Shown here: piece by piece, positions 27,534 through 62,071 of the stretch | How the letters are laid out: the number at the start of each line of letters is the position of its first letter | How positions within the stretch are numbered: the stretch's first letter is position 1 | DNA from: Escherichia coli | Lineage (GTDB): Bacteria > Pseudomonadota > Gammaproteobacteria > Enterobacterales > Enterobacteriaceae | Length of the DNA stretch: 64,000 bases | NCBI RefSeq assembly: GCF_036507355.1 | Contig: NZ_AP027877.1 | Direction: 5' to 3' (one strand) | Program-made: the position numbers and the translations under genes | The notes under the pieces: generated by a model | What the model was told of the DNA's origin: nothing | Databases searched by the model: none | The model's input: only the letters and a program-made list of their open reading frames with translations

Positions 27534-28753
27534 AAATACTGGTCTACGGCATTAACTACTCGCCGGAGTTAACCGGCATCGGCAAATACACCGGAGAGAT
27601 GGTGGAATGGCTGGCGGCACAAGGTCATGAGGTGCGGGTTATTACCGCACCGCCTTACTACCCGCAGTGGCAGGTGGGCGAGAACTATTCCGCCTGGCGG
27701 TACAAACGAGAAGAGGGGGCCGCCACGGTGTGGCGCTGCCCGCTGTACGTGCCAAAACAGCCGAGCACCCTGAAACGCCTGTTGCATCTCGGCAGTTTTG
27801 CCGTCAGCAGTTTCTTTCCGCTGATGGCGCAACGTCGCTGGAAGCCGGATCGCATTATTGGTGTGGTGCCAACGCTGTTTTGCACGCCGGGAATGCGCCT
27901 GCTGGCGAAACTCTCTGGCGCGCGTACCGTGCTGCATATTCAGGATTACGAAGTGGATGCCATGCTGGGGCTGGGCCTTGCCGGAAAAGGTAAAGGCGGC
28001 AAAGTGGCACAGCTGGCAACGGCGTTCGAACGTAGCGGACTGCATAACGTCGATAACGTCTCTACGATTTCGCGCTCGATGATGAATAAAGCTATCGAAA
28101 AAGGCGTGGCGGCGGAAAACGTCATTTTCTTCCCAAACTGGTCGGAAATCGCCCGTTTTCAGCATGTTGCAGACGCCGATGTTGACGCCCTTCGTAACCA
28201 GCTTGGCCTGCCGGATAACAAAAAAATCATTCTTTACTCCGGCAATATTGGTGAAAAGCAGGGGCTGGAAAACGTTATTGAAGCCGCCGATCGTCTGCGC
28301 GATGAACCGCTGATTTTTGCCATTGTCGGGCAGGGCGGCGGCAAAGCGCGGCTGGAAAAAATGGCGCAGCAGCGTGGTCTGCGCAACATGCAACTTTTTC
28401 CGCTGCAATCGTATGACGCTTTACCCGCACTGCTGAAGATGGGCGATTGCCATCTGGTGGTGCAAAAACGCGGCGCGGCAGATGCCGTATTGCCGTCGAA
28501 ACTGACCAATATTCTGGCGGTAGGCGGTAACGCGGTGATTACCGCAGAGGCCCACACAGAACTGGGGCAGCTTTGCGAAACCTTTCGGGGCATTGCGGTT
28601 TGCGTAGAACCGGAATCGGTCGAGGCGCTGGTGGCGGGGATCCGTCAGGCGCTTCTGCTACCCAAACACAACACGGTGGCACGTGAATATGCCGAACGCA
28701 CGCTCGATAAAGAGAACGTGTTACGTCAATTTATAAATGATATTCGGGGATAA
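27530..28753 (+). CDS. wcaI: Colanic acid glycosyltransferase (GT4)
   Basis: 407 aa; position in cluster. Confidence 0.9.
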
Positions 28754-30293: not shown

Positions 30294-30384
30294 CAATGAA
30301 TGCGAAACCGCGGTGTAAATAACGACAAAAATAAAATTGGCCGCTTCGGTCAGGGCCAACTATTGCCTGAAAAAGGGTAACGAT

Positions 30385-34714: not shown

Positions 34715-34900
34715 CGGGTGCAGCGTAAAACGCCTTATCCATCCTACGGTTCTGTGCTCGGGACCTGTAGGCCTGATAAGACGCGTCAGCGTCGCATCAG
34801 GCACTGAATGCCGGATGCGGCGTGAACGCCTTATCCGGCCTACGGTTCTGTGCTCGGGTCTTGTAGGCCTGATAAGACGCGCCAGCGTCGCATCAGGCAA
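34715..34900. repeat. REP/BIME cluster (about four REP units) between wzxC and wcaK
   Basis: Alternating gccggatgcggcgtgaacgccttatccggcctac and gtaggcctgataagacgcg(t/c)cagcgtcgcatcaggc units. Confidence 0.85.
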
Positions 34901-37467: not shown

Positions 37468-38862
37468 ATGCCATTTAAAACACTCTCCCGACGCACCTTC
37501 CTGACGGCAAGCTCGGCGCTTGCCTTCCTCCATACCCCTTTCGCTCGCGCACTTCCCGCCCGACAAAGCGTTAACATTAACGACTACAACCCTCACGACT
37601 GGATCGCCTCATTTAAACAAGCCTTCAGCGAAGGGCAAACGGTCGTCGTGCCTGCTGGATTCGTTTGTGACAATATCAACACCGGCATCTTCATCCCTCC
37701 CGGCAAAACGTTACACATCCTTGGAAGCCTGCGCGGCAACGGCAGAGGGCGATTTGTCTTACAGGACGGCAGCCAGGTGACAGGGGAGGAGGGCGGCAGT
37801 ATGCATAACATCACCCTGGATGTGCGTGGTTCTGACTGCACCATCAAAGGGCTGGCGATGAGCGGCTTTGGCCCGGTAACGCAGATTTATATCGGCGGCA
37901 AAAACAAACGGGTCATGCGCAACCTGACCATCGATAACCTGACCATTAGCCACGCTAATTACGCCATCTTACGGCAGGGATTTCATAACCAGATTATCGG
38001 TGCCAACATCACCAATTGTAAGTTCAGCGACTTACAGGGGGACGCTATTGAATGGAACGTGGCGATTAACGACAGTGATATTTTGATCTCCGACCATGTC
38101 ATCGAGCGCATCAACTGTACCAACGGCAAAATCAACTGGGGCATCGGTATAGGCTTTGCGGGAAGCACTTACGATAATAATTACCCGGAAGACCAGGCAG
38201 TGAAAAACTTTGTCGTGGCGAATATCACGGGATCGGATTGTCGGCAGTTGATCCATGTTGAAAATGGTAAACATTTTGTTATTCGTAATATCAAAGCCCG
38301 CAATATCACGCCGGATTTCAGTAAGAAAGCAGGCATTGATAACGCGACAGTTGCTATTTACGGTTGTGACAATTTCGTGATTGATAATATTGAAATGATT
38401 AATAGCGCCGGGATGTTAATCGGCTATGGGGTAATTAAAGGCAAATATCTCTCGATACCGCAAAATTTCCGAGTGAATAATATTCAACTGGATAACACCC
38501 ACCTTGCTTACAAATTGCGCGGCATCCAAATCTCCGCCGGGAATGCTGTCTCCTTTGTGGCGCTGACTAACATTGAGATGAAGCGTGCCTCGCTGGAGTT
38601 ACACAACAAGCCGCAACATCTTTTTATGCGTAATATCAAGGTGATGCAGGAATCCTCTGTTGGACCCGCATTGATCATGAACTTCGACATGCGCAAAGAC
38701 GTTCGAGGCGTCTTTATGGCGAAAGAAGAAACACTGCTGTCTCTTGCAAATGTTCATGCGGTGAATGAAAGAGGGCAAAGCTCCATCGATATCGACAGGA
38801 TTAATCACCATATTGTTAATGTGGAAAAGATTAACTTTAGATTGCCGGAACGGAGAGAGTAG
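37468..38862 (+). CDS. wcaM: Colanic acid biosynthesis protein WcaM (Tat-type signal, beta-helix-like)
   Basis: 464 aa; N-terminal [15 protein letters not shown]; last gene of cluster. Confidence 0.9.
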
Positions 38863-39036
38863 ATTTGCGACCATTCCTGGAAAAATGGAGCCATACTTAA
38901 GAACAATGCTACTGCAATCCACAACGAAGCGGCGTAACATCACAAGTAATTCAGTAATCAATTCAGGGTAATTGATGCTGGCGAAGAAAATCGAACAAGC
39001 TATAATTCAGCAACCATTTTACAGGTGGATGAAATA

Positions 39037-39930
39037 ATGACGAATTTAAAAGCAGTTATTCCTGTAGCGGGTCTTGGGATGCATATGTTGCCTGCCACTA
39101 AGGCGATTCCCAAAGAGATGCTACCGATCGTCGACAAGCCAATGATTCAGTACATTGTTGACGAGATTGTGGCTGCAGGGATCAAAGAAATCCTCCTGGT
39201 AACTCACGCGTCCAAGAACGCGGTCGAAAACCACTTCGACACCTCTTATGAATTAGAATCTCTCCTTGAACTGCGCGTGAAGCGTCAACTGCTGGCGGAA
39301 GTACAGTCCATTTGCCCGCCGGGCGTGACAATTATGAACGTGCGTCAGGGTGAACCTTTAGGTTTGGGCCACTCCATTTTATGTGCACGACCTGCCATTG
39401 GTGACAATCCATTTGTCGTGGTGCTGCCAGACGTTGTGATCGACGACGCCAGCGCCGACCCGCTGCGCTACAACCTTGCTGCCATGATTGCGCGCTTCAA
39501 CGAAACGGGCCGCAGCCAGGTGCTGGCAAAACGTATGCCAGGTGACCTCTCTGAATACTCTGTCATCCAGACCAAAGAGCCGCTGGACCGCGAAGGTAAA
39601 GTCAGCCGCATTGTTGAATTCATCGAAAAACCGGATCAGCCGCAGACGCTGGAATCAGACATCATGGCCGTTGGTCGCTATGTGCTTTCTGCCGATATTT
39701 GGCCGGAACTTGAACGCACTCAGCCAGGTGCATGGGGGCGTATTCAGCTGACTGATGCCATCGCCGAACTGGCAAAAAAACAGTCCGTTGATGCCATGCT
39801 GATGACAGGTGACAGCTACGACTGCGGTAAAAAAATGGGCTATATGCAGGCATTCGTTAAGTACGGACTGCGCAACCTGAAGGAAGGGCCAAAGTTCCGT
39901 AAGAGCATTGAGAAGTTGCTCGGGGAATAG
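39037..39930 (+). CDS. galF: UTP-glucose-1-phosphate uridylyltransferase subunit GalF
   Basis: Start at [14 protein letters not shown] (297 aa). Confidence 0.95.
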
Positions 39931-40185
39931 ATCCAAGCCAATGTAACAATAATTTAGATAAATAGCGGCAGCTAACATTCCGGCGTCTATGCTTTAAACA
40001 AAGGAATGTTACTGTCGTTTTTCTTTTTAAAACAAAGAATAACAACGAGTTAACCTACTAAGTTTAATCTATTTTTTGTTGGATTTATCCTTGTTTCTGA
40101 CAGCATTTGGTAAGACAATTGGCGTTTGAATTTAAGATAGCTTTGCGATAGCTAGCGGGGCGGGGTACATCTTTGGCATTTTGCT

Positions 40186-40223
40186 AGTGCACTGGTAGCT
40201 GTTAAGCCAGGGGCGGTAGCGTG
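40186..40223 (+). promoter_or_regulatory. JUMPstart element with ops (GGCGGTAGCGTG at 40212-40223) in the O-antigen operon leader
   Basis: agtgcactggtagctgttaagccaggggcggtagcgtg; second exact ops copy in the window. Confidence 0.85.
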
Positions 40224-40322
40224 GTAAGATTGTGTTTATATGATGCGTTCTCAAAATAAGAAATAATAATCCTGACTATTTTTATACTATTGATAATATC
40301 TGAAATAAACTTAAGAGCAAAC

Positions 40323-41327
40323 ATGAAAGTAATTGTAAATAATTTTTTTGATGGTATTTTGAAAAGAGGAATACCGATCTATACTTCTGAACTTGTGCAA
40401 AAGTTAAGAGACAATAATGTTCAGGTTATTTATGTTGCATGTCCAAAAGCATTCCATAAGCTGCCTTCATGGTTTCTGAATGTTCTTTTTATAATAGTAG
40501 AGCAGCTTTTAATACCAATTATGGGTATATTTTATAGAACTAAGTATAATATATATCCCTATAATAGTAGTTCCATCATTGACTTGTTATTAGGTAAGGC
40601 AATTGTTATAATTCATGACTTCATTAGTCTTAAGAAAAATAAACGAAATCTTGCTGCCATTTATGTGAAAGTCTGTATTTATTTTTCATCTTTTTTAGCA
40701 AAGAAAGTAATATTTATTTCTCAAAGCACTCAGCGAGTATCTAAGAGAATATCGCTATTTAAGTGTATAGAATCTATCCTGCTCCCAAATCCATTTTTCT
40801 CATTTGAGAAAATTGCTAATGTTACCGAAATAAAAGATCTTGGATATTTACTTCTAGTTTCAGGTTTAGGGGATAATAAGGATCTAGGCACAGCTCTGGA
40901 CTATTATTTTTCAATCCCAAGGGAAGAAAGAATACCATTAAAAATATTAGGTTGTGGGAATGGTATTAGCAAGGTTAACGACTTAATTGATGGGCGGGAT
41001 ACAGATAAAGAAATTGAAATTATTGGTTTTGTTTCTTTAGAGGAAGTCGTCAAACTATATTGTAATTCTAAAATTGTTTGGGCTCATTCGCTTGCCGAGG
41101 GGTATGGGAGGACTTTAGCTGAAGCAAAACTCACATGCAAAAATGTTATATGCACACGGATCTCTGCTTTCCGCGAACAAAAGGATTCGAATATTTTCTT
41201 TTATACTTACTATTCTGAGTATTATGAAGTCTATTCATACTTGGTAGATAATTCACCCAGTGTCGAAAGGAAAGCTCTGCATGAACATATTTTATTTGAA
41301 AATGAATTGAGAAAGATTTATGAGTAA
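40323..41327 (+). CDS. O-antigen glycosyltransferase (GT1/GT4-like)
   Basis: AT-rich ORF; C-terminal EGYGRTLAEA resembles the GT4 E-x7-E motif; start could also be 40290. Confidence 0.7.
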   Translation: MKVIVNNFFDGILKRGIPIYTSELVQKLRDNNVQVIYVACPKAFHKLPSWFLNVLFIIVEQLLIPIMGIFYRTKYNIYPYNSSSIIDLLLGKAIVIIHDFISLKKNKRNLAAIYVKVCIYFSSFLAKKVIFISQSTQRVSKRISLFKCIESILLPNPFFSFEKIANVTEIKDLGYLLLVSGLGDNKDLGTALDYYFSIPREERIPLKILGCGNGISKVNDLIDGRDTDKEIEIIGFVSLEEVVKLYCNSKIVWAHSLAEGYGRTLAEAKLTCKNVICTRISAFREQKDSNIFFYTYYSEYYEVYSYLVDNSPSVERKALHEHILFENELRKIYE

Positions 41328-42522
41328 TATTGATATAAATAAGAAACAGATCTTAGTTTTGACTCCACGGTTCCCGTTTCCTGTCATTGGTGGGGATCGA
41401 TTACGTATCTATAAGATCTGTAAAGAACTGTCTAAGCATTATGATCTTACGTTGCTGAGTCTGTGTGATAAACGCGAAGAGCTCAACTATGAATATGATC
41501 GTGAAGTTTTTAGTAGTGTTCACAGAGTATATCTTTCAAAGAAAAAATCTATTTTAAATGTCATATTCTCTTTGTTTTCAAATACTCCCCTACAGATTGG
41601 GTATTATAAATCTAAAGAATTTGAAGATAAACTTAAGCAGTTATTACCTGAACATTCTGCAACTCTTTCACATTTGATAAGGGTTGGTGATTATGTGAAA
41701 GAGAATAAAGATATAAATTTTTTAGAGATGACCGATGCCATTTCACTTAATTATAAACGAGTAAAGGAAAAAGCATCTTTATTGAGTTTAAAAACATTTG
41801 TATATTCTTTTGAACAAAAAAGACTCGAACGATATGAGCGAACTATAAATAACAAGTTCAGCTTGACTACTTTAGTATCACAGGTTGACTCCGATTATTT
41901 ATATCCAGACCGTCCGAATAATGTATTAGTCTGTGGAAATGGTGTTGATGCCGTTAGCTTACCTTTTTCAGAACGAAAAATAGCTAAAGATAAAAAGATA
42001 ACCCTTGTATTTATAGGTAATTTATATTCTTTGCAAAATATGGATGGTGTGAGATGGTTCACCAAGGAAGTTTTACCATTTCTTAACAAGCATGGTAATT
42101 TTGAATTTAAGGTCATCGGACGTATTACAGATAAAGATAAGAGTTGGTTAGAAAGCCAGCCTGGCGTTGTTGTCACAGGTGAAGTTGATAGCATAACTTA
42201 TGCAGCAGCTGATGGGCATATTGGTGTATGTCCTATTAGATTAGGGGCAGGTATCCAAAATAAGGTACTTGAATATATGGCGTTGGGATTACCTTGTATC
42301 TCTTCTACTGTAGGCTTTGAAGGCTTGGGAGCAGAGGAGGGTAAGGAGATTTATGTTGCCAATACAAAAGAAGAATATTTACGTGTATTAAATTATTTTA
42401 TAACAAATCTGGATAAATATACCGAAACAGCATTAGTTGCGAAAAAGTTCATCGGTGAGAATTTTTCATGGGAAGCTAAATTGAGCCCATATATCCAGAA
42501 AATTAAGGAGTCTGTTAAATAA
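41320..42522 (+). CDS. O-antigen glycosyltransferase (GT4 family)
   Basis: 400 aa; GT4-like C-terminal domain ([22 protein letters not shown]). Confidence 0.75.
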
Positions 42523-42523
42523 A

Positions 42524-43939
42524 ATGATTATCCCAATTATTATGGCCGGTGGTTCTGGTACTCGCTTATGGCCTCTTTCGCGTTCGTTATACCCGAAACA
42601 ATTTTTATCATTGATTAATGAAAATAGTTTGCTCCAGGAAACGTTGAAGAGACTTGATGGATTAAATTGTTTGCCTCCTGTCATTGTTAGCAATAATGAG
42701 CATAGATTTATTGTTGCTGAACAATTGCGCCAGTTCGGTGTGGATGACTTCCAGATTATTCTAGAACCTGTAGGTAGAAATACTGCGCCCGCCGTTGCGC
42801 TGGCTGCTCTAAAGTCTCTAGAACTCCATGGCGATCATCATATGCTGGTTCTTGCTGCTGACCATGCTATTCAGGATATTGAAGCCTTCCATGCAGCTGT
42901 TTTAGCTGCAGAACAAGAGTCCGTTGACAATAAGTTAGTGACTTTTGGCATCGTCCCGACCAAACCTGAAACTGGGTATGGCTATATTAAAAAGGGCGAA
43001 CAAGTTAAAAACTCTGTATTTAAAGTAAATTCTTTCGTCGAAAAACCTGATTTAGAAACGGCTAAAAATTATCTCGAACAAAAATGCTATTTGTGGAATA
43101 GTGGTATGTTCATGTTCAAGGCGAGCGTATATTTAGATGAATTGAAAAAATTTCGCCCTGATATTTTAGCAGCGTGTAAAGAGTCGCTTTCCAGTGCTAG
43201 TACTGATCTAGATTTTATCAGATTAAATTCTGATGTCTTTGCAGAATGTCCCGATGAGTCAATTGATTATGCGGTAATGGAAAAAACTCAGGATTGTGTA
43301 GTTATTCCACTTGATGCTGACTGGAGTGACATCGGTTCATGGACATCACTTTGGGAAATATCAGAGAAAGATGAACATGAAAACGTATCGCATGGCGATG
43401 TAATTAACTATAACAGCAGGAACAACTACATTTACTCTGAAGGTTCACTGATCAGCACTGTAGGAGTTAATAACCTTATTATAGTTCAAACTAAAGATGC
43501 GCTCCTGGTAGCACAGCAAGACAACGTACAAGACATAAAGAAGATTGTCGAAATTCTTAAAAAGCAAAAACGTAGCGAACATGTATCCCATCGCGAAGTC
43601 TATCGTCCTTGGGGACGTTATGATTCTGTAGAACGTGGCGACCGTTATCAGGTAAAACGTATTACCGTTAAGCCTGGTGAATGTCTCTCAACACAAATGC
43701 ATCATCATCGAGCTGAGCATTGGGTGGTTGTCGCTGGTACTGCAAAGGTGACTTGCGGCGAACGCACTTTTTTCGTCACTGAAAATGAGTCAACTTTCAT
43801 ACCAATTGGCACAGTTCATACCTTGGAAAATCCAGGAAAGATACCATTAGAAGTAATTGAGATTCAGTCGGGTGTATATCTAGGTGATGATGATATTGTG
43901 CGCCTAAGTGATAAATATGGTCGTGTTGAGGATAAATAA
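42524..43939 (+). CDS. manC: Mannose-1-phosphate guanylyltransferase (O-antigen copy)
   Basis: 471 aa; [16 protein letters not shown]; collinear with cpsB but AT-rich. Confidence 0.9.
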
Positions 43940-43943
43940 TTAT

Positions 43944-45365
43944 ATGAATATTACCAATGATGTAATTAAAAATAGCGGAATTGCATTTGGTACAAGTGGT
44001 GCTCGTGGATTAGTGAAAGATTTTACACCCAACGTGTGTGCTGCATTCACTTATGCTTTTATCGATGTAATGATGAAGGATTTTTCTTTTAAAGAGGTTG
44101 CGCTCGCAATAGATAATCGGCCAAGCAGCTATGCTATGGCACAAGCTTGCGCAGCAGCATTGTTGGAATGTAGTATTAAACCTATTTACTACGGTGTAAT
44201 TCCAACTCCAGCTTTGGCAAATCAAGCGATTGCCGATGGGATTCCTGCAATAATGGTTACTGGAAGTCATATTCCATTTGATAGAAATGGTTTGAAATTC
44301 TATCGTCCAGACGGGGAAATTTCAAAAGAAAATGAGAACAGCATTATACATGCTGAAAAAGAGTATCCTGATGTAACTGTATTGCCAGAATTACAATGTT
44401 CAAAGCGTGCCGCTGATACTTATATCGAGAGAAACACTTCAATTTTTTCAAATATATTTAAAGGTAAACGTATCGGGATTTATGAACATTCAAGTGCGGG
44501 ACGGGATCTTTATTCAGAAATATTCAGTAAACTTGGTGCTGAAGTTGTAAGTATTGGTAGAAGTGATAAGTTTGTGCCTATTGATACTGAAGCAGTATCA
44601 AAAGAAGATGAAGAAAAAGCTTTACACTGGTCATCTGAGTATGACCTCGATATGATTTTTTCTACCGATGGTGATGGCGATCGTCCTTTGGTTGCTGACG
44701 AAAATGGCGTTTGGTTACGGGGTGATATATTAGGACTATTTTGCTCAAAGGCAATGAATATTGAAGCGGTAGCTGTACCTGTAAGTTGTAATACGGTTAT
44801 TCAGACTTGCGGGTGGTTTAATCATGTAACGCTGACTAAAATTGGTTCACCATACGTCATTTCAGCGTTTGATTCTCTGAATAATAGTTTTGATAGGGTT
44901 GCAGGGTTTGAGGCTAACGGTGGGTATCTTTTAGGTAGCGATGTAAATTATAACAGCGGTATGATTAAAGCGCTTCCAACAAGAGATGCTGTTTTGCCTG
45001 CTTTAATGGTACTGGCACTGGCTATAAAAAATAATGTGACTATTTCAAAACTCTTGGCGGAGTTGCCACCACGATTTACCTACTCAAATAGAGTTCAAAA
45101 TTTTGCAACAAGCAAAAGCAAAAGCATTATCGCGTCAGCTCAAGAAAATCCTCAAGAATTTATCGAAAGAATAGGCTTTGTCGATCTTCATGTACAATCG
45201 GTGGATACAATTGACGGGTTAAGATTGACACTAAGTGATGGTTCAATAATCCATTTGCGACCGTCAGGCAACGCACCTGAATTGCGATGCTATGCAGAAG
45301 CAGATAACATAATAAAAGCTGAAAAATTAGTGTTAGAAGTTTTGCATAAAGTTACTCTTTTGTAA
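43944..45365 (+). CDS. manB: Phosphomannomutase (O-antigen copy)
   Basis: Start at [22 protein letters not shown] (473 aa); AT-rich. Confidence 0.85.
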
Positions 45366-45547
45366 AAAATATAAACTTTTTTCTACTCTTGAGCGGTTTG
45401 TCATTTAACCGCTCAGTAATAGATTGTTTATAAATTGTTTATATTTAGCATTGGTGTTTTTATTTGCGTTCATCCCGAATAAGAGATTGTAAAATTAACT
45501 GTTTCTTATTTTTCAAATGAGTTACTTCACTAGTAAAGCTAATTACT

Positions 45548-46879
45548 ATGCATAAGCAATATTATTTATTATTGTGCAATAAAATACAGTTTAAACATCT
45601 GGCTATATATTTTTCTGTATTTCTTTCACTATCCTCATGTTTCTTGTGGGGAGGGGCGGATACATTTGTATCGCAAGTGTATATTGATATTTTAGCCACT
45701 ATATCTACAGCGCTATTAGTTATTTTGATGTTCTATTATTATATTAATAGAGTTCGCTATTTATCACTAACCTTACTTTTTGCATTCGTTTTTTCTTTGA
45801 TTATTGGTTTGCCATCGATTTATCTTTACTATTTTAAAAACGCAAATCATGGGTTTGAAATAATTTGTATCTGGGGGATGTTGATCAATTCCATCCTTTA
45901 CTTGCAAACAACAGAGACTGTCATAAAAGAAGAAAAAAGATATTTAACTAGTTTATTTTATATTTTGTTTTCTATTGTTGCACTGTGTCAATTATACAAA
46001 ATATTAATTTATCTTATGTTTATATTGAATTCAGGAGAAGGGCATTTAGCAATTTATACTGAAAGCGAAGAATTGCTATCCCAAGTTCCATTTTTTATTC
46101 GTGCTATTAGTGGTTTTGCAGTTGTAATGTCATTGTCCACTTTTTATTTTAAAACACCGACCTACATTAAAGTTATTGCATTTGTTTTACTTGCATCTGA
46201 TTTAGCTATTGGAATACGTAATAAGTTTTTCTTTTCAGTGATTTGTATTTTTATACTATATATGTACTCTAATGAGTATAGAGTAAGAAATTTATTTAAG
46301 CAGCTCTCAAAACCAATATTTCTCATCGCCGGTTTTTTATGCTTCTCGATGGTATCGTATTTCCGTGAAGGGTACCAAATCGATTTTATGATTTATATTG
46401 GCATTGTTTTAGATTCGCTATCCTCTACTCTTGGGGGGATGCAGAATTTGTTTGATATGCAATCATCAGGATGGGATCAACTTCATCCCGCTGTGGTATT
46501 CACACAAGTATTACCGCTAAGCGGTCTTGGTTTTCTTGATGATCAACAAATCGCAAAAGATTTTTCAATAATTGTTTTAGGTGATGTATCCTCTGGTATT
46601 GCGTTGTCATCTTCAGGATTGTTAGAGTCATCGTTGCTGAGTCTAAACTTGGGAGTGATTATTTATTTACTGTATTTATCAGGGGTGATGCTATTTATTA
46701 AATGGGGACTAAATAATCAACGGATAATAATAAACTTTGTTGCCATCTCCATGATATCTGGATTTTTTTATGCTGTTCGTGGTGAACTGATTTTGCCATT
46801 GGCTTTTCTTCTAAAATCATTGCCGATTGTTCTTATATCTCCATTACTTGTTAAAAATAAAATTTATCATGGTCAGTAA
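45548..46879 (+). CDS. wzy: O-antigen polymerase
   Basis: 443-aa extremely hydrophobic, very AT-rich ORF with multiple predicted TM segments; start uncertain. Confidence 0.7.
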   Translation: MHKQYYLLLCNKIQFKHLAIYFSVFLSLSSCFLWGGADTFVSQVYIDILATISTALLVILMFYYYINRVRYLSLTLLFAFVFSLIIGLPSIYLYYFKNANHGFEIICIWGMLINSILYLQTTETVIKEEKRYLTSLFYILFSIVALCQLYKILIYLMFILNSGEGHLAIYTESEELLSQVPFFIRAISGFAVVMSLSTFYFKTPTYIKVIAFVLLASDLAIGIRNKFFFSVICIFILYMYSNEYRVRNLFKQLSKPIFLIAGFLCFSMVSYFREGYQIDFMIYIGIVLDSLSSTLGGMQNLFDMQSSGWDQLHPAVVFTQVLPLSGLGFLDDQQIAKDFSIIVLGDVSSGIALSSSGLLESSLLSLNLGVIIYLLYLSGVMLFIKWGLNNQRIIINFVAISMISGFFYAVRGELILPLAFLLKSLPIVLISPLLVKNKIYHGQ

Positions 46880-46920
46880 GTGGTTTATTTTTCGACCAGG
46901 ATCTCACCAGTAGGCATGAC

Positions 46921-48156
46921 ATGATCAAAGAAATTTTCTCCGATGGCATTTTTTCGCTATTTAATAAAATATGTTACTTCGGTTTTAAAACACTTGCAAT
47001 AATTCTGATTACTCGTTCCTTAGGAGAAGATGTAGGCGGAGAGTTCATTTTTTTAGTTGGTTTTCTCGAAGTCCTTCGGGTGGTTACTGATTTTGGTGTG
47101 GATCTGTTTGTTATAAAAAAATATAATGATTCTACAGATAAAATAAAACTATTAAATGTAACGTTTGCACAAAAAATTCTTTCTGGAGTAATTGTTTTAC
47201 TACTGTTTTGTTTGTATTCTTTTGTTCAGGGTTATCAATATAATGTCTATATTCCTATTGTGTTAGCCTTACCTGTTGCTTTATTTTTTAATTTCTCAAA
47301 TAGCTATTTTCAATCTCTAAATTCCAATAAATCTCTCACGTTTCCGATCGCAATTGCATCTATTGCAACGTGTACGATCTTCGCTATTCAGTATTTTTTC
47401 AACGTTAAATTTAACGCATGGGATTACCTGTGTGTTGAACTATTATTCGTATCGCTGGTTACACTAAAACTATTCGTTAGTGTCAAGTTTAGGTTTATTA
47501 GAACGTCAGCTTTTGATGTGCTAATGTCAATTCTTTCTTTATATAAATATACATTAAGTATAGGTCTTACAGCTGTTGTTGTAATTATTTATAGCCGTAT
47601 AGATAATTTTTATCTCAAGACATTTGCCCCAGGGGATCTTGCAGCATATGGCCAGATATTTAGGATGGTTGATCCACTGGTTATGGTTTCTTCTGTATTT
47701 TCTACAGTTGCCTATGCAAGATTTTGCCGAATTAACTTACAAGAAAAAAATACTTTTACTAAGGTGTTTCAGTTCCTGTTATGTATTGTGGCATATGGCG
47801 TGCTGAGTTCATTAGTTTATTTCTTTATAATAAAATACCTGGGTCATTTTGTATTGATTTCTAATGTTAATAATGATTTCTTGATAATGATGTTCTTGAT
47901 TGTTGCATGTGTGAAATGTATCAATGGTGGTACAACTGCAATAATTCAGTCACAGGGGTTTTATAAAGTGGGTTTGTATGTTTCGTATGTTTGCATTTTG
48001 ACATCGATACCAACTATGTATTTCTTAATAATGAAGTACGGTGTTAAAGGTGCTGCTATGACGATTCTGCTTGTAGAGTGTATTAGTTTCATATTACTTC
48101 TCTGCAGCTTTTTTATGATAAAAAAGATGCGTCCTAAAAAAACATTCGAAATGTAA
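46921..48156 (+). CDS. wzx: O-antigen flippase
   Basis: 411-aa polytopic membrane protein with Wzx-like N-terminus (RSLGEDVGGEF...DFGVD). Confidence 0.75.
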   Translation: MIKEIFSDGIFSLFNKICYFGFKTLAIILITRSLGEDVGGEFIFLVGFLEVLRVVTDFGVDLFVIKKYNDSTDKIKLLNVTFAQKILSGVIVLLLFCLYSFVQGYQYNVYIPIVLALPVALFFNFSNSYFQSLNSNKSLTFPIAIASIATCTIFAIQYFFNVKFNAWDYLCVELLFVSLVTLKLFVSVKFRFIRTSAFDVLMSILSLYKYTLSIGLTAVVVIIYSRIDNFYLKTFAPGDLAAYGQIFRMVDPLVMVSSVFSTVAYARFCRINLQEKNTFTKVFQFLLCIVAYGVLSSLVYFFIIKYLGHFVLISNVNNDFLIMMFLIVACVKCINGGTTAIIQSQGFYKVGLYVSYVCILTSIPTMYFLIMKYGVKGAAMTILLVECISFILLLCSFFMIKKMRPKKTFEM

Positions 48157-48308
48157 TCAATGAGTCCTCTTTGAATAGAATTAGTTTGTTCTATTTATGA
48201 ACACTTAGCTTGAGTAAGTTCTAACATAGATTACTAATTGTTTGATACTATCTGCTTTACAAGCATAACCGCGTATGTCGCGGTGACCACACCTGACAGG
48301 AGTATGTA

Positions 48309-49715
48309 ATGTCCAAGCAACAGATCGGCGTCGTCGGTATGGCAGTGATGGGGCGCAACCTGGCGCTCAACATCGAAAGCCGTGGTTATACCGTCTCCGT
48401 CTTCAACCGCTCCCGCGAAAAAACTGAAGAAGTTGTTGCCGAGAACCCGGGTAAGAAACTGGTTCCTTATTACACGGTGAAAGAGTTTGTCGAGTCTCTT
48501 GAAACCCCTCGTCGCATCCTGTTAATGGTGAAAGCAGGTGCAGGCACGGATGCTGCTATTGATTCCCTCAAACCATATCTCGATAAAGGTGACATCATCA
48601 TTGATGGTGGTAACACCTTCTTCCAGGACACTATTCGTCGTAATCGTGAGCTTTCAGCAGAGGGCTTTAACTTCATCGGTACCGGTGTTTCCGGCGGTGA
48701 AGAGGGGGCGTTGAAAGGGCCTTCCATCATGCCTGGTGGGCAGAAAGAAGCCTATGAACTGGTTGCACCAATTCTGACCAAAATCGCCGCAGTAGCTGAA
48801 GACGGTGAGCCATGCGTTACCTATATTGGTGCCGATGGCGCAGGTCACTATGTGAAGATGGTTCACAACGGTATTGAATACGGCGATATGCAACTGATTG
48901 CTGAAGCCTATTCTCTGCTTAAAGGTGGTCTGAACCTCACCAACGAAGAACTGGCGCAGACCTTTACCGAGTGGAATAACGGTGAACTGAGCAGCTACCT
49001 GATCGACATCACCAAAGATATCTTCACTAAAAAAGATGAAGACGGTAACTACCTGGTTGATGTGATTCTGGATGAAGCAGCAAACAAAGGTACCGGTAAA
49101 TGGACCAGCCAGAGCGCGCTGGATCTCGGAGAACCGCTGTCGCTGATTACAGAGTCTGTGTTTGCACGTTATATCTCTTCTCTGAAAGATCAGCGCGTTG
49201 CCGCTTCTAAAGTTCTCTCTGGCCCGCAAGCGCAGCCAGCAGGCGACAAGGCTGAGTTCATCGAAAAAGTTCGTCGTGCGCTGTATCTGGGCAAAATCGT
49301 TTCTTACGCTCAGGGTTTCTCTCAGCTGCGCGCAGCGTCTGAAGAGTACAACTGGGATCTGAACTACGGCGAAATCGCGAAGATTTTCCGTGCTGGCTGC
49401 ATCATCCGTGCGCAGTTCTTGCAGAAAATCACCGATGCTTATGCCGAAAATCCACAGATCGCTAACCTGCTGCTGGCTCCGTACTTCAAGCAAATTGCCG
49501 ATGACTACCAGCAGGCGCTGCGTGATGTCGTTGCTTATGCAGTACAGAACGGTATCCCGGTTCCGACCTTCGCTGCTGCGGTTGCCTATTACGATAGCTA
49601 CCGTGCCGCTGTTCTGCCTGCGAACCTGATCCAGGCACAGCGTGACTATTTCGGTGCGCATACTTATAAGCGCATTGATAAAGAAGGTGTGTTCCATACT
49701 GAATGGCTGGATTAA
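48309..49715 (+). CDS. gnd: 6-phosphogluconate dehydrogenase (decarboxylating)
   Basis: 468 aa; [16 protein letters not shown]. Confidence 0.97.
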
Positions 49716-59430: not shown

Positions 59431-59466
59431 ATAAAAAAGCCCCCGGAAGGTGATCTTCCGGGGGCT
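59431..59466 (-). terminator. his attenuator terminator hairpin
   Basis: Minus-strand agcccccggaag...cttccgggggct followed by a U-run. Confidence 0.9.
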
Positions 59467-59529
59467 TTCTCATGCGTTCATGAACCACTGGAAGATCTGA
59501 ATGTCTTCCAGCACACATCGCCTGAAAGA

Positions 59530-59580
59530 CTAGTCAGGATGATGGTGATGATGGTGGTGTTTAAATTGAACGCGTGTCAT
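59530..59580 (-). CDS. hisL: his operon leader peptide
   Basis: Minus strand encodes MTRVQFKHHHHHHHPD with seven consecutive His codons. Confidence 0.95.
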   Translation of the reverse strand: MTRVQFKHHHHHHHPD

Positions 59581-61805: not shown

Positions 61806-61891
61806 AGAAAAATTATTATGACAAGCCTCTCATTCTCTTGTCATTCCCCCCCCATTTAGGCACAATGCGCCGCTGTCAAAAAATGACTAAA

Positions 61892-61924
61892 AACCGACGT
61901 TTCATCAGCGTCGGTTATTTTTTG
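61892..61924 (+). terminator. Probable rho-independent terminator
   Basis: aaccgacg...cgtcggtt stem followed by T-run. Confidence 0.55.
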
Positions 61925-62071
61925 CTTCAAACCAATCATTCATACCAAGAGGCCGGGCTTCGTACCGGATAGATATTTACTAAAAATCGACAGTTGTTGT
62001 CGCTGAGGAATCCAAAAAAATGGGGCAATTTTTTGCTTACGCGACGGTTATCACCGTAAAGGAGAATGACC

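Follow-up and report, generated by a model that had tools for sequence, protein, structure and literature searches.

The window analysed here, a stretch of 64,000 nucleotides, belongs to the Escherichia coli chromosome (contig NZ_AP027877.1) and covers the his-linked polysaccharide region, with wza…wcaM, galF, a JUMPstart element, a six-gene O-antigen cluster, gnd, ugd, wzzB and his. The his operon lies on the strand opposite to the O-antigen operon. The gene galF (39037-39930, + strand) was identified with NCBIfam TIGR01105 (679.8 bits) and from how RefSeq annotates the homologous locus. It is separated from the first O-antigen gene by a 392-bp intergenic region (39931-40322) with the JUMPstart inside, all of them on the + strand. 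The O-antigen operon (40323-48156, +) encodes, according to NCBIfam matches and the RefSeq annotation of loci 99.6-100% identical to it, a glycosyltransferase (40323-41327, with the ATG at 40323), a GT4 glycosyltransferase (41320-42522), manC (42524-43939), manB (about 43944-45365), wzy (45548-46879) and wzx (46921-48156), all on the + strand. The conserved downstream flank is gnd (48309-49715, +; NCBIfam gnd). The GC profile of the operon shows values of 0.31-0.39 over about 8 kb, compared with about 0.53 in the flanks.

The wzy gene is 99.6-99.7% identical to RefSeq genes named as O17/O44/O73/O77/O106 family polymerase in 91 genomes, and it was found in 93 out of 5426 complete E. coli genomes. 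The wzx of loci with 99.6-99.7% identity carries the same O17/O44/O73/O77/O106 family name in RefSeq, and the whole O-antigen cluster is 99.6-100% identical to two compared loci (L001 and L014). The clusters of O17, O44, O73, O77 and O106 are more than 99% identical to one another and encode a Man3-GlcNAc backbone (PMC4732683, PMC7685785). As judged from the sequence of its genes, the cluster of the window is of the E. coli O17/O44/O73/O77/O106 O-antigen type. A group 1 capsule locus, with the arrangement galF-JUMPstart-wzi, was considered and rejected, given the full colanic-acid cluster including wcaM upstream and the O-antigen wzy and wzx downstream.

The closest genome is that of E. coli G4/9 (locus L016, NZ_CP060073.1), whose galF and wcaM are 100% identical to those of the window. 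In the comparison with window positions 37468-48156, the G4/9 cluster presented an IS3 transposase in manC and many frameshifted O-antigen genes, whereas the cluster of the window is intact. Either G4/9 and the window come from different isolates of the lineage, or the insertion and the errors are peculiar to the G4/9 assembly. Rfam also detected other elements above the gathering score in the window, namely the algC RNA upstream of cpsG (30331-30380, +, 76.6 bits), a naRNA4/REP-type element between wzxC and wcaK (34770-34840, -, 79.7 bits), the His operon leader (59431-59554, -, 131.2 bits) and the sRNA STnc240 (61851-61925, +, 68.2 bits).

The Rfam covariance-model scan (cmscan) detected exactly two JUMPstart matches (RF01707) in the whole window, both full length, at 40185-40223 and 15814-15852. 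The 39-nt match at 40185-40223 (+) covers model positions 1-38 of 38 with 59.2 bits, above the gathering score of 35 bits, and has an E-value of 4.6e-11 for the 64 kb and of 2.9e-13 for a stretch of 400 nt. The sequence of 40186-40223 (+) reads AGTGCACTGGTAGCTGTTAAGCCAGGGGCGGTAGCGTG, and its 3′ end is an exact match to the ops (operon polarity suppressor) 12-mer, GGCGGTAGCGTG (G1-G12, 40212-40223, +). The search for this 12-mer with up to one mismatch found only 15841-15852 and 40212-40223 in the window, both of them exact; 0.23 matches were expected by chance, and two or more were present in none of 100 shuffles. In the ops numbering, T6 corresponds to 40217, the pause position T11 to 40222 and G12 to 40223. 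The 12-mer of this copy is the wild-type ops of PMC5995543 and PMC11001881, with the same numbering, and the functionally tested bases C3, G4, G5, T6, A7, G8, T11 and G12 are all as in the wild type of PMC5995543. It is found on the + strand, which is the non-template, coding strand of the O-antigen operon, with the bases required in ops/RfaH operons in place. The position is intergenic, 99 nt upstream of the first ATG of the operon and downstream of a promoter predicted from conservation.

The 5′ part of the element contains a stem-loop (40192-40210, +), formed by the arms CUGGU (40192-40196) and GCCAG (40206-40210) around a 9-nt loop, which is present in the Rfam consensus structure as well as in the minimum-free-energy fold. 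The ops pause position follows the end of the stem by 12 nt, and one unpaired G separates the stem from ops G1. The folding energy of the RNA hairpin is unexceptional (z 0.38), and no significant thermodynamic support was obtained for the fold of the 145-nt leader (z 0.53), so that energy by itself is uninformative here. The free 12-nt ops DNA folds with only -0.9 kcal/mol, a value that is uninformative since the hairpin seen by cryoEM is stabilised by protein. With its RF01707 score, a 5-bp stem located 5′ of ops, a position in the same-strand non-coding leader of a polysaccharide cluster and conservation across unrelated clusters, this copy has the attributes of the JUMPstart family. The stretch 40185-40223 is a bona fide, canonical JUMPstart/ops element in its canonical place, of a kind already known, and nothing in the copy is unusual. 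An earlier note, made from the letters alone, had described here a second JUMPstart/ops element heading the O-antigen cluster, with the exact ops at 40212-40223; the sequence and Rfam bear this out, with coordinates that agree within one base.

The other JUMPstart/ops element of the window, which the earlier note called the cps copy, heads the colanic-acid operon (wza-wcaM), in whose leader it is located (15814-15852, +; Rfam, 57.3 bits); the homologous locus is flanked by yegH and wza. Similar to the O-antigen copy, it possesses the identical ops 12-mer and the identical 3′ stem arm GCCAG. It differs from the O-antigen copy by five substitutions in the 5′ half (CAGTGTATTGGTAGCTAAAAAGCCAGG...), which give the stem arm UUGGU instead of CUGGU, with U-G in place of C-G, and the loop AAAAA. 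In strain CFT073, the operon of this copy is reported to be silenced by H-NS at initiation (PMC9765446). The O-antigen copy had been described as closer to the consensus than the cps copy. This holds marginally by the Rfam score, which is 1.9 bits higher, and more clearly by mismatches to the consensus of 12 O-antigen leaders (none, compared with five in the wza copy), although such a consensus favours the O-antigen copy by construction. Two more GGCGGTAG octamers were found on the + strand, at 15254-15261 (GGCGGTAGTTTT) and 28516-28523 (GGCGGTAGGCGG), both of which lack the T11-G12 pause dinucleotide. Judged by the corresponding positions in homologous annotated loci, they lie inside coding sequence, that of opposite-strand yegH and of wcaI, respectively. 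According to published ChIP-seq, intragenic ops-like sites do not load RfaH.

The remaining part of the galF-O-antigen leader contains further features on the + strand. Directly after galF, RNA folding and the leader alignment identified a hairpin with a T-run, similar to an intrinsic terminator (39964-40028; stem 39964-40019, T-run 40018-40028). The fold of 39950-40040 has an energy of -24.5 kcal/mol (z -4.78), and none of 200 shuffles was as good. The arms of this hairpin vary among the leaders of different serogroups and yet stay complementary, as in CGGCAGTGAAGATTC...GAATATTCCTGCCG compared with CGGCAGCTAACATTCC...GGAATGTTACTGTCG. It is probably the intrinsic terminator of galF, ending galF transcripts ahead of the O-antigen promoter. 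A simple terminator scan of 39800-40450 reported no terminator; the loop of the hairpin exceeds the loop limit of the scan. A match to Rfam mir-283 at 39942-40037 (22.5 bits, with a gathering score of 50) was rejected as spurious, as it reflects the galF terminator hairpin.

In the alignment of the 12 leaders, CTTGTTTC and TTGGTAAGACAATTAGCG (40090-40127) are the only blocks upstream of the JUMPstart conserved in nearly all of them. From this conservation we infer a sigma-70-type promoter at 40091-40119 (+), with the -35 hexamer TTGTTT (40091-40096), a 17-nt spacer and the -10 hexamer GACAAT (40114-40119). TTGTTT-N17-GACAAT may be the weak promoter of the O-antigen operon, with a predicted start at about 40126, about 60 nt upstream of the JUMPstart. 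In the galF-JUMPstart spacer, no promoter on the + strand was detected by a strict consensus scan of 39800-40450. The same scan gave two promoter-like matches, one within galF and one on the minus strand across the JUMPstart, which is the chance level (2 found, 2.1 expected). Marolda and Valvano reportedly mapped the O7 rfb promoter and leader in 1998. Between ops and the first start codon there is an AT-rich leader of 99 nt (40224-40322, +; GC 0.19-0.32), with a weak Shine-Dalgarno-like AAGAG at 40313-40317. This part has no similarity to the leaders of other serogroups and is specific to the O-antigen type.

The conservation of the element was examined across E. coli and among O-antigen leaders. 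The blastn search with a 71-nt query centred on the element revealed matches in 5425 out of the 5426 complete genomes of E. coli, with a median of 3 matching places in each. Nearly all of these matches span query positions 17-54, corresponding to window positions 40186-40223, the shared core. In addition, 12 galF-O-antigen leaders were compared, the one of the window and 11 others with differing first downstream genes, such as rfbB (K-12-like, O25b, SJ7), GT2 (O157), GT4 (O111), wzx (O6) and others. The element is present in all 12 leaders, with GGCGGTAG, C(G/T)TG and ops invariant, and the similarity stops exactly after ops G12. The copy of the window has no mismatch to the majority consensus of the 12 leaders over 40186-40223, and the O6-type leader (L013) differs from the window JUMPstart at two of the 38 positions, with an identical ops. 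The earlier note had made its reading depend on the conservation of the JUMPstart context in related O-antigen leaders, and this context is kept in those of K-12/O16, O157, O111, O25b and O6.

JUMPstart-like variants were also observed in other genera. Seven Pseudomonas, Stutzerimonas and Marinobacterium loci (L024, L054, L057, L125 and L128-L130) possess a variant with the stem CAGGA/UCCUG or CAAGA/UCUUG, a loop of about 13 nt and the same ops and register, often followed by CCTG and present in several copies per genome. Genomes of Halomonas and Nitrincola harbour three ops copies each, with upstream stems of their own. In a Lachnospiraceae MAG (L127, minus-strand orientation, about 480-540), an ops-like 13-mer recurs 30 nt apart in a direct repeat (GGGCGGTAGCGTGAATTGTAATTGCG...); the arrangement resembles a repeat array, tandem or spaced, without relation to the JUMPstart.

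Mismatch maps were drawn against the loci L001 and L014, and the result obtained with L001 was replicated with L014. The galF and colanic-acid genes of the window are only 94-98% identical to those of the O17-family strains SW070910 and CFSAN061770, and the mismatches are dense as far as 39864. Between 39865 and about 48700 the window is about 99.8% identical to other O17-family strains, roughly one difference per 400 bp, compared with only 94-97% in the flanks, so that the last 66 bp or so of galF (39865-39930) are already part of the block shared by the O17 family. The 3′ end of the block is located at about 48450-48720, inside gnd, where divergence resumes. These sharp switches of identity between about 95% and about 99.8% (about 39865-39931 and about 48450-48720) mark recombination junctions, delimiting an exchanged block of about 8.8 kb which includes the whole leader. 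By these maps, the 5′ junction in this lineage is placed in the last 66 bp or so of galF, about 320 bp upstream of the JUMPstart. In agreement with this, the 93 genomes with this wzy and the genomes with at least 80% of the galF-JUMPstart spacer are the same 93, a perfect co-segregation. The galF allele of the window is at least 99% identical in only two genomes. Because the spacer co-segregates with wzy and the block starts at about 39865, the JUMPstart, the putative promoter and the probable galF terminator travel inside the exchanged block.

The literature defines the O-antigen gene cluster as located between JUMPstart and gnd (PMC4732683), and the earlier note had taken the element as marking the 5′ boundary of the horizontally acquired block. 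This is correct only in the sense that similarity between serogroups ends at 40223/40224. However, both the low-GC tract and the shared block begin upstream. Near 39950, just past the galF stop, the GC content drops from about 0.5 to 0.27-0.33, and the JUMPstart is a GC-rich island (0.46-0.51) in this AT-rich tract. The JUMPstart is the start of the serogroup-specific DNA, and not the recombination junction.

It is highly probable that 40185-40223 acts as the JUMPstart of the O-antigen (rfb) operon leader, with ops as its 3′ third and with the textbook function in RfaH antitermination. For this copy, the analysis establishes the identity of the sequence, its strand and place in the leader, its conservation throughout the species and the genes around it; pausing, RfaH loading and anti-polarity are taken from the literature on the identical ops and on homologous leaders. 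Transcription would most likely start from the promoter predicted in the galF-JUMPstart spacer (40091-40119), and the RNA polymerase transcribing ops would pause at U11 (40222). The non-template strand G1-G12 would then fold into a small hairpin with T6 (40217) exposed, and autoinhibited RfaH would bind this hairpin, open, and remain with the polymerase to the end of the operon. There it would exclude NusG, suppress pausing and Rho-dependent termination, and counteract H-NS/StpA roadblocks. The refolded KOW domain of RfaH would recruit the ribosome to the leader, in which the start codon is 99 nt downstream and the ribosome-binding site is weak. The net effect would be the full-length expression, through to wzx, of an 8-kb, horizontally exchanged operon with 31-39% GC.

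Zuber et al. described G4, G5, A7 and G8 as essential for RfaH recruitment, with contributions of C3 and T6, and T11-G12 as inducing the U11 pause (PMC5995543). By cryoEM, the non-template ops hairpin (G2:C9, C3:G8, G4:A7) stabilises a swivelled, pre-translocated pause and is grasped by autoinhibited RfaH, which then opens, remains bound and offers its refolded KOW domain to the ribosome, with a start codon within about 100 nt downstream of ops (PMC11001881). In CFT073 (O6), ChIP-seq located RfaH loading at ops in the O-antigen wzx leader, in an rfaH deletion RNA polymerase occupied the DNA 5.4 kb downstream at only 0.1-0.34 of the wild-type level, and H-NS/StpA filaments cover all RfaH targets (PMC9765446). 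The AT-rich operon of the window, of about 8 kb, would be exactly the expected type of H-NS- and Rho-sensitive xenogeneic target served by RfaH. The sequence offers nothing against the textbook RfaH reading; the rfaH gene itself is located outside the window.

The element also resembles described systems closely. The JUMPstart upstream of E. coli and Salmonella rfb clusters (Hobbs & Reeves 1994; RF01707) has the same 39-nt sequence, the same position after galF and the same architecture of stem-loop plus ops. Compared with the Rfam consensus, the copy of the window has one extra U in the loop and otherwise no difference of substance, and compared with known rfb JUMPstarts it is the downstream leader and genes that differ, being of the O17/O44/O73/O77/O106 type. 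With the ops/RfaH system (Bailey, Hughes & Koronakis 1997; Artsimovitch & Landick), the window shares the identical 12-mer, the site in the 5′ leader and a long AT-rich cell-envelope operon. The distance from ops to the start codon is 99 nt in the window and 40-67 nt for CFT073 wzx, kps and rfa (PMC9765446), and is within the approximately 100 nt of PMC11001881.

Other explanations of the element were weighed against RfaH antitermination. That the match at 40185-40223 is a chance or decayed copy without function has a negligible probability: only the short length of the element speaks for it, against an E-value of 4.6e-11 and the lack of two 12-mer matches in any of the 100 shuffles, and it is already refuted by conservation, with ops invariant in 12 of 12 leaders and matches in 5425 of 5426 genomes. 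It is very improbable, though somewhat less so, that the JUMPstart is mainly a short homology anchor for the recombinational exchange of O-antigen clusters, and conserved on that account and not for the control of transcription. The abrupt end of leader similarity after ops G12, with unrelated sequence beyond, would fit such an anchor, as it makes the element the last shared sequence before the variable genes. Nevertheless, the junction with O17-family strains is found about 320 bp upstream of the JUMPstart, at the 3′ end of galF, the one on the 3′ side falls within gnd, and the galF-JUMPstart spacer and wzy are found in perfect association (93 and 93 genomes). A tract of 38 bp is also marginal for RecA-mediated exchange, which counts against an anchor. 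Furthermore, the same element heads operons that are not exchanged, including wza (15814-15852), rfa, hly and kps (PMC9765446).

The ops/RfaH model leaves the role of the 5′ two-thirds of the JUMPstart, the stem-loop, unexplained. A further explanation, unlikely on balance but clearly more plausible than the previous two, is that this part acts as a nascent-RNA hairpin, beside or partly instead of the ops DNA, either as an exit-channel hairpin tuning the ops pause or RfaH loading, or as an RNA feature for ribosome capture or transcript stability. The stem-loop would be a functional RNA hairpin at a fixed distance of 12 nt from U11, situated in the RNA exit channel at the pause, and could modulate pause lifetime, RfaH loading or ribosome capture; we regard this, too, as unlikely on balance. 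A stem end 12 nt upstream of U11 is close to the geometry of the his-type exit-channel pause hairpin. The 5-bp stem 40192-40196/40206-40210 is present in the Rfam consensus, and Weinberg et al. 2010 had already pointed out a conserved stem-loop as part of JUMPstart (PMC2864571). Representative genomes were scanned for GGGGCGGTAGCGTG, with at least 121 matches, in which true gammaproteobacterial leaders are mixed with chance matches elsewhere, and each was searched for a perfect 5-bp stem with a loop of 6-14 and the 3′ arm ending at the first G of the pattern, using shifts of 1-5 nt as comparison. Among the matches listed, 42 out of 59 gammaproteobacterial GGGGCGGTAGCGTG records possess a perfect stem at the exact register, compared with 1-9 at shifted registers, and the non-gammaproteobacterial ones present no enrichment (10 out of 62 at the exact register, 4-13 at shifted ones). 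More than 20 arm combinations occur among the matches listed, including CUGGU/GCCAG, CAGGU/GCCUG, UUGGA/UCCAG, CAGGA/UCCUG (Pseudomonas-type leaders) and UGAGG/CCUCG. Since G-U pairs in the arms would be A-C on the opposite strand, they point to RNA of the sense strand. However, the stem test picks the best loop length per sequence, its sole control being the same procedure at other registers, the folding energy is unremarkable (z 0.38), and the minimum-free-energy structure of the wza copy is without this stem. Moreover, the ops pause is described as biochemically distinct from hairpin-stabilised pauses, and ops and RfaH as sufficient in vitro (PMC11001881, PMC5995543); according to the authors of PMC11001881, ops and RfaH alone encode the whole cycle. 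If the hairpin were functional, an RNA component would join a mechanism now described as ops DNA and RfaH alone; the stem-loop itself is known, and only its function would be new.

RfaH antitermination is thus the preferred reading of the element. For the window, the JUMPstart fixes the operon structure, the O-type and how far the exchanged block extends (from about 39865 to 48700). What the present analysis adds is that it assigns the O-type, sets out the anatomy of the leader precisely and places the element within the exchanged block and not at its edge. The O17/O44/O73/O77/O106 family includes recently reported STEC O77g lineages, and JUMPstart routinely serves as upstream PCR anchor in the typing of O-antigen clusters. 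More generally, enterobacterial O-antigen operons have in the JUMPstart a standard landmark and point of control which, read as the RfaH loading site, accounts for how an operon that is long, AT-rich and horizontally exchanged escapes silencing by Rho and H-NS.
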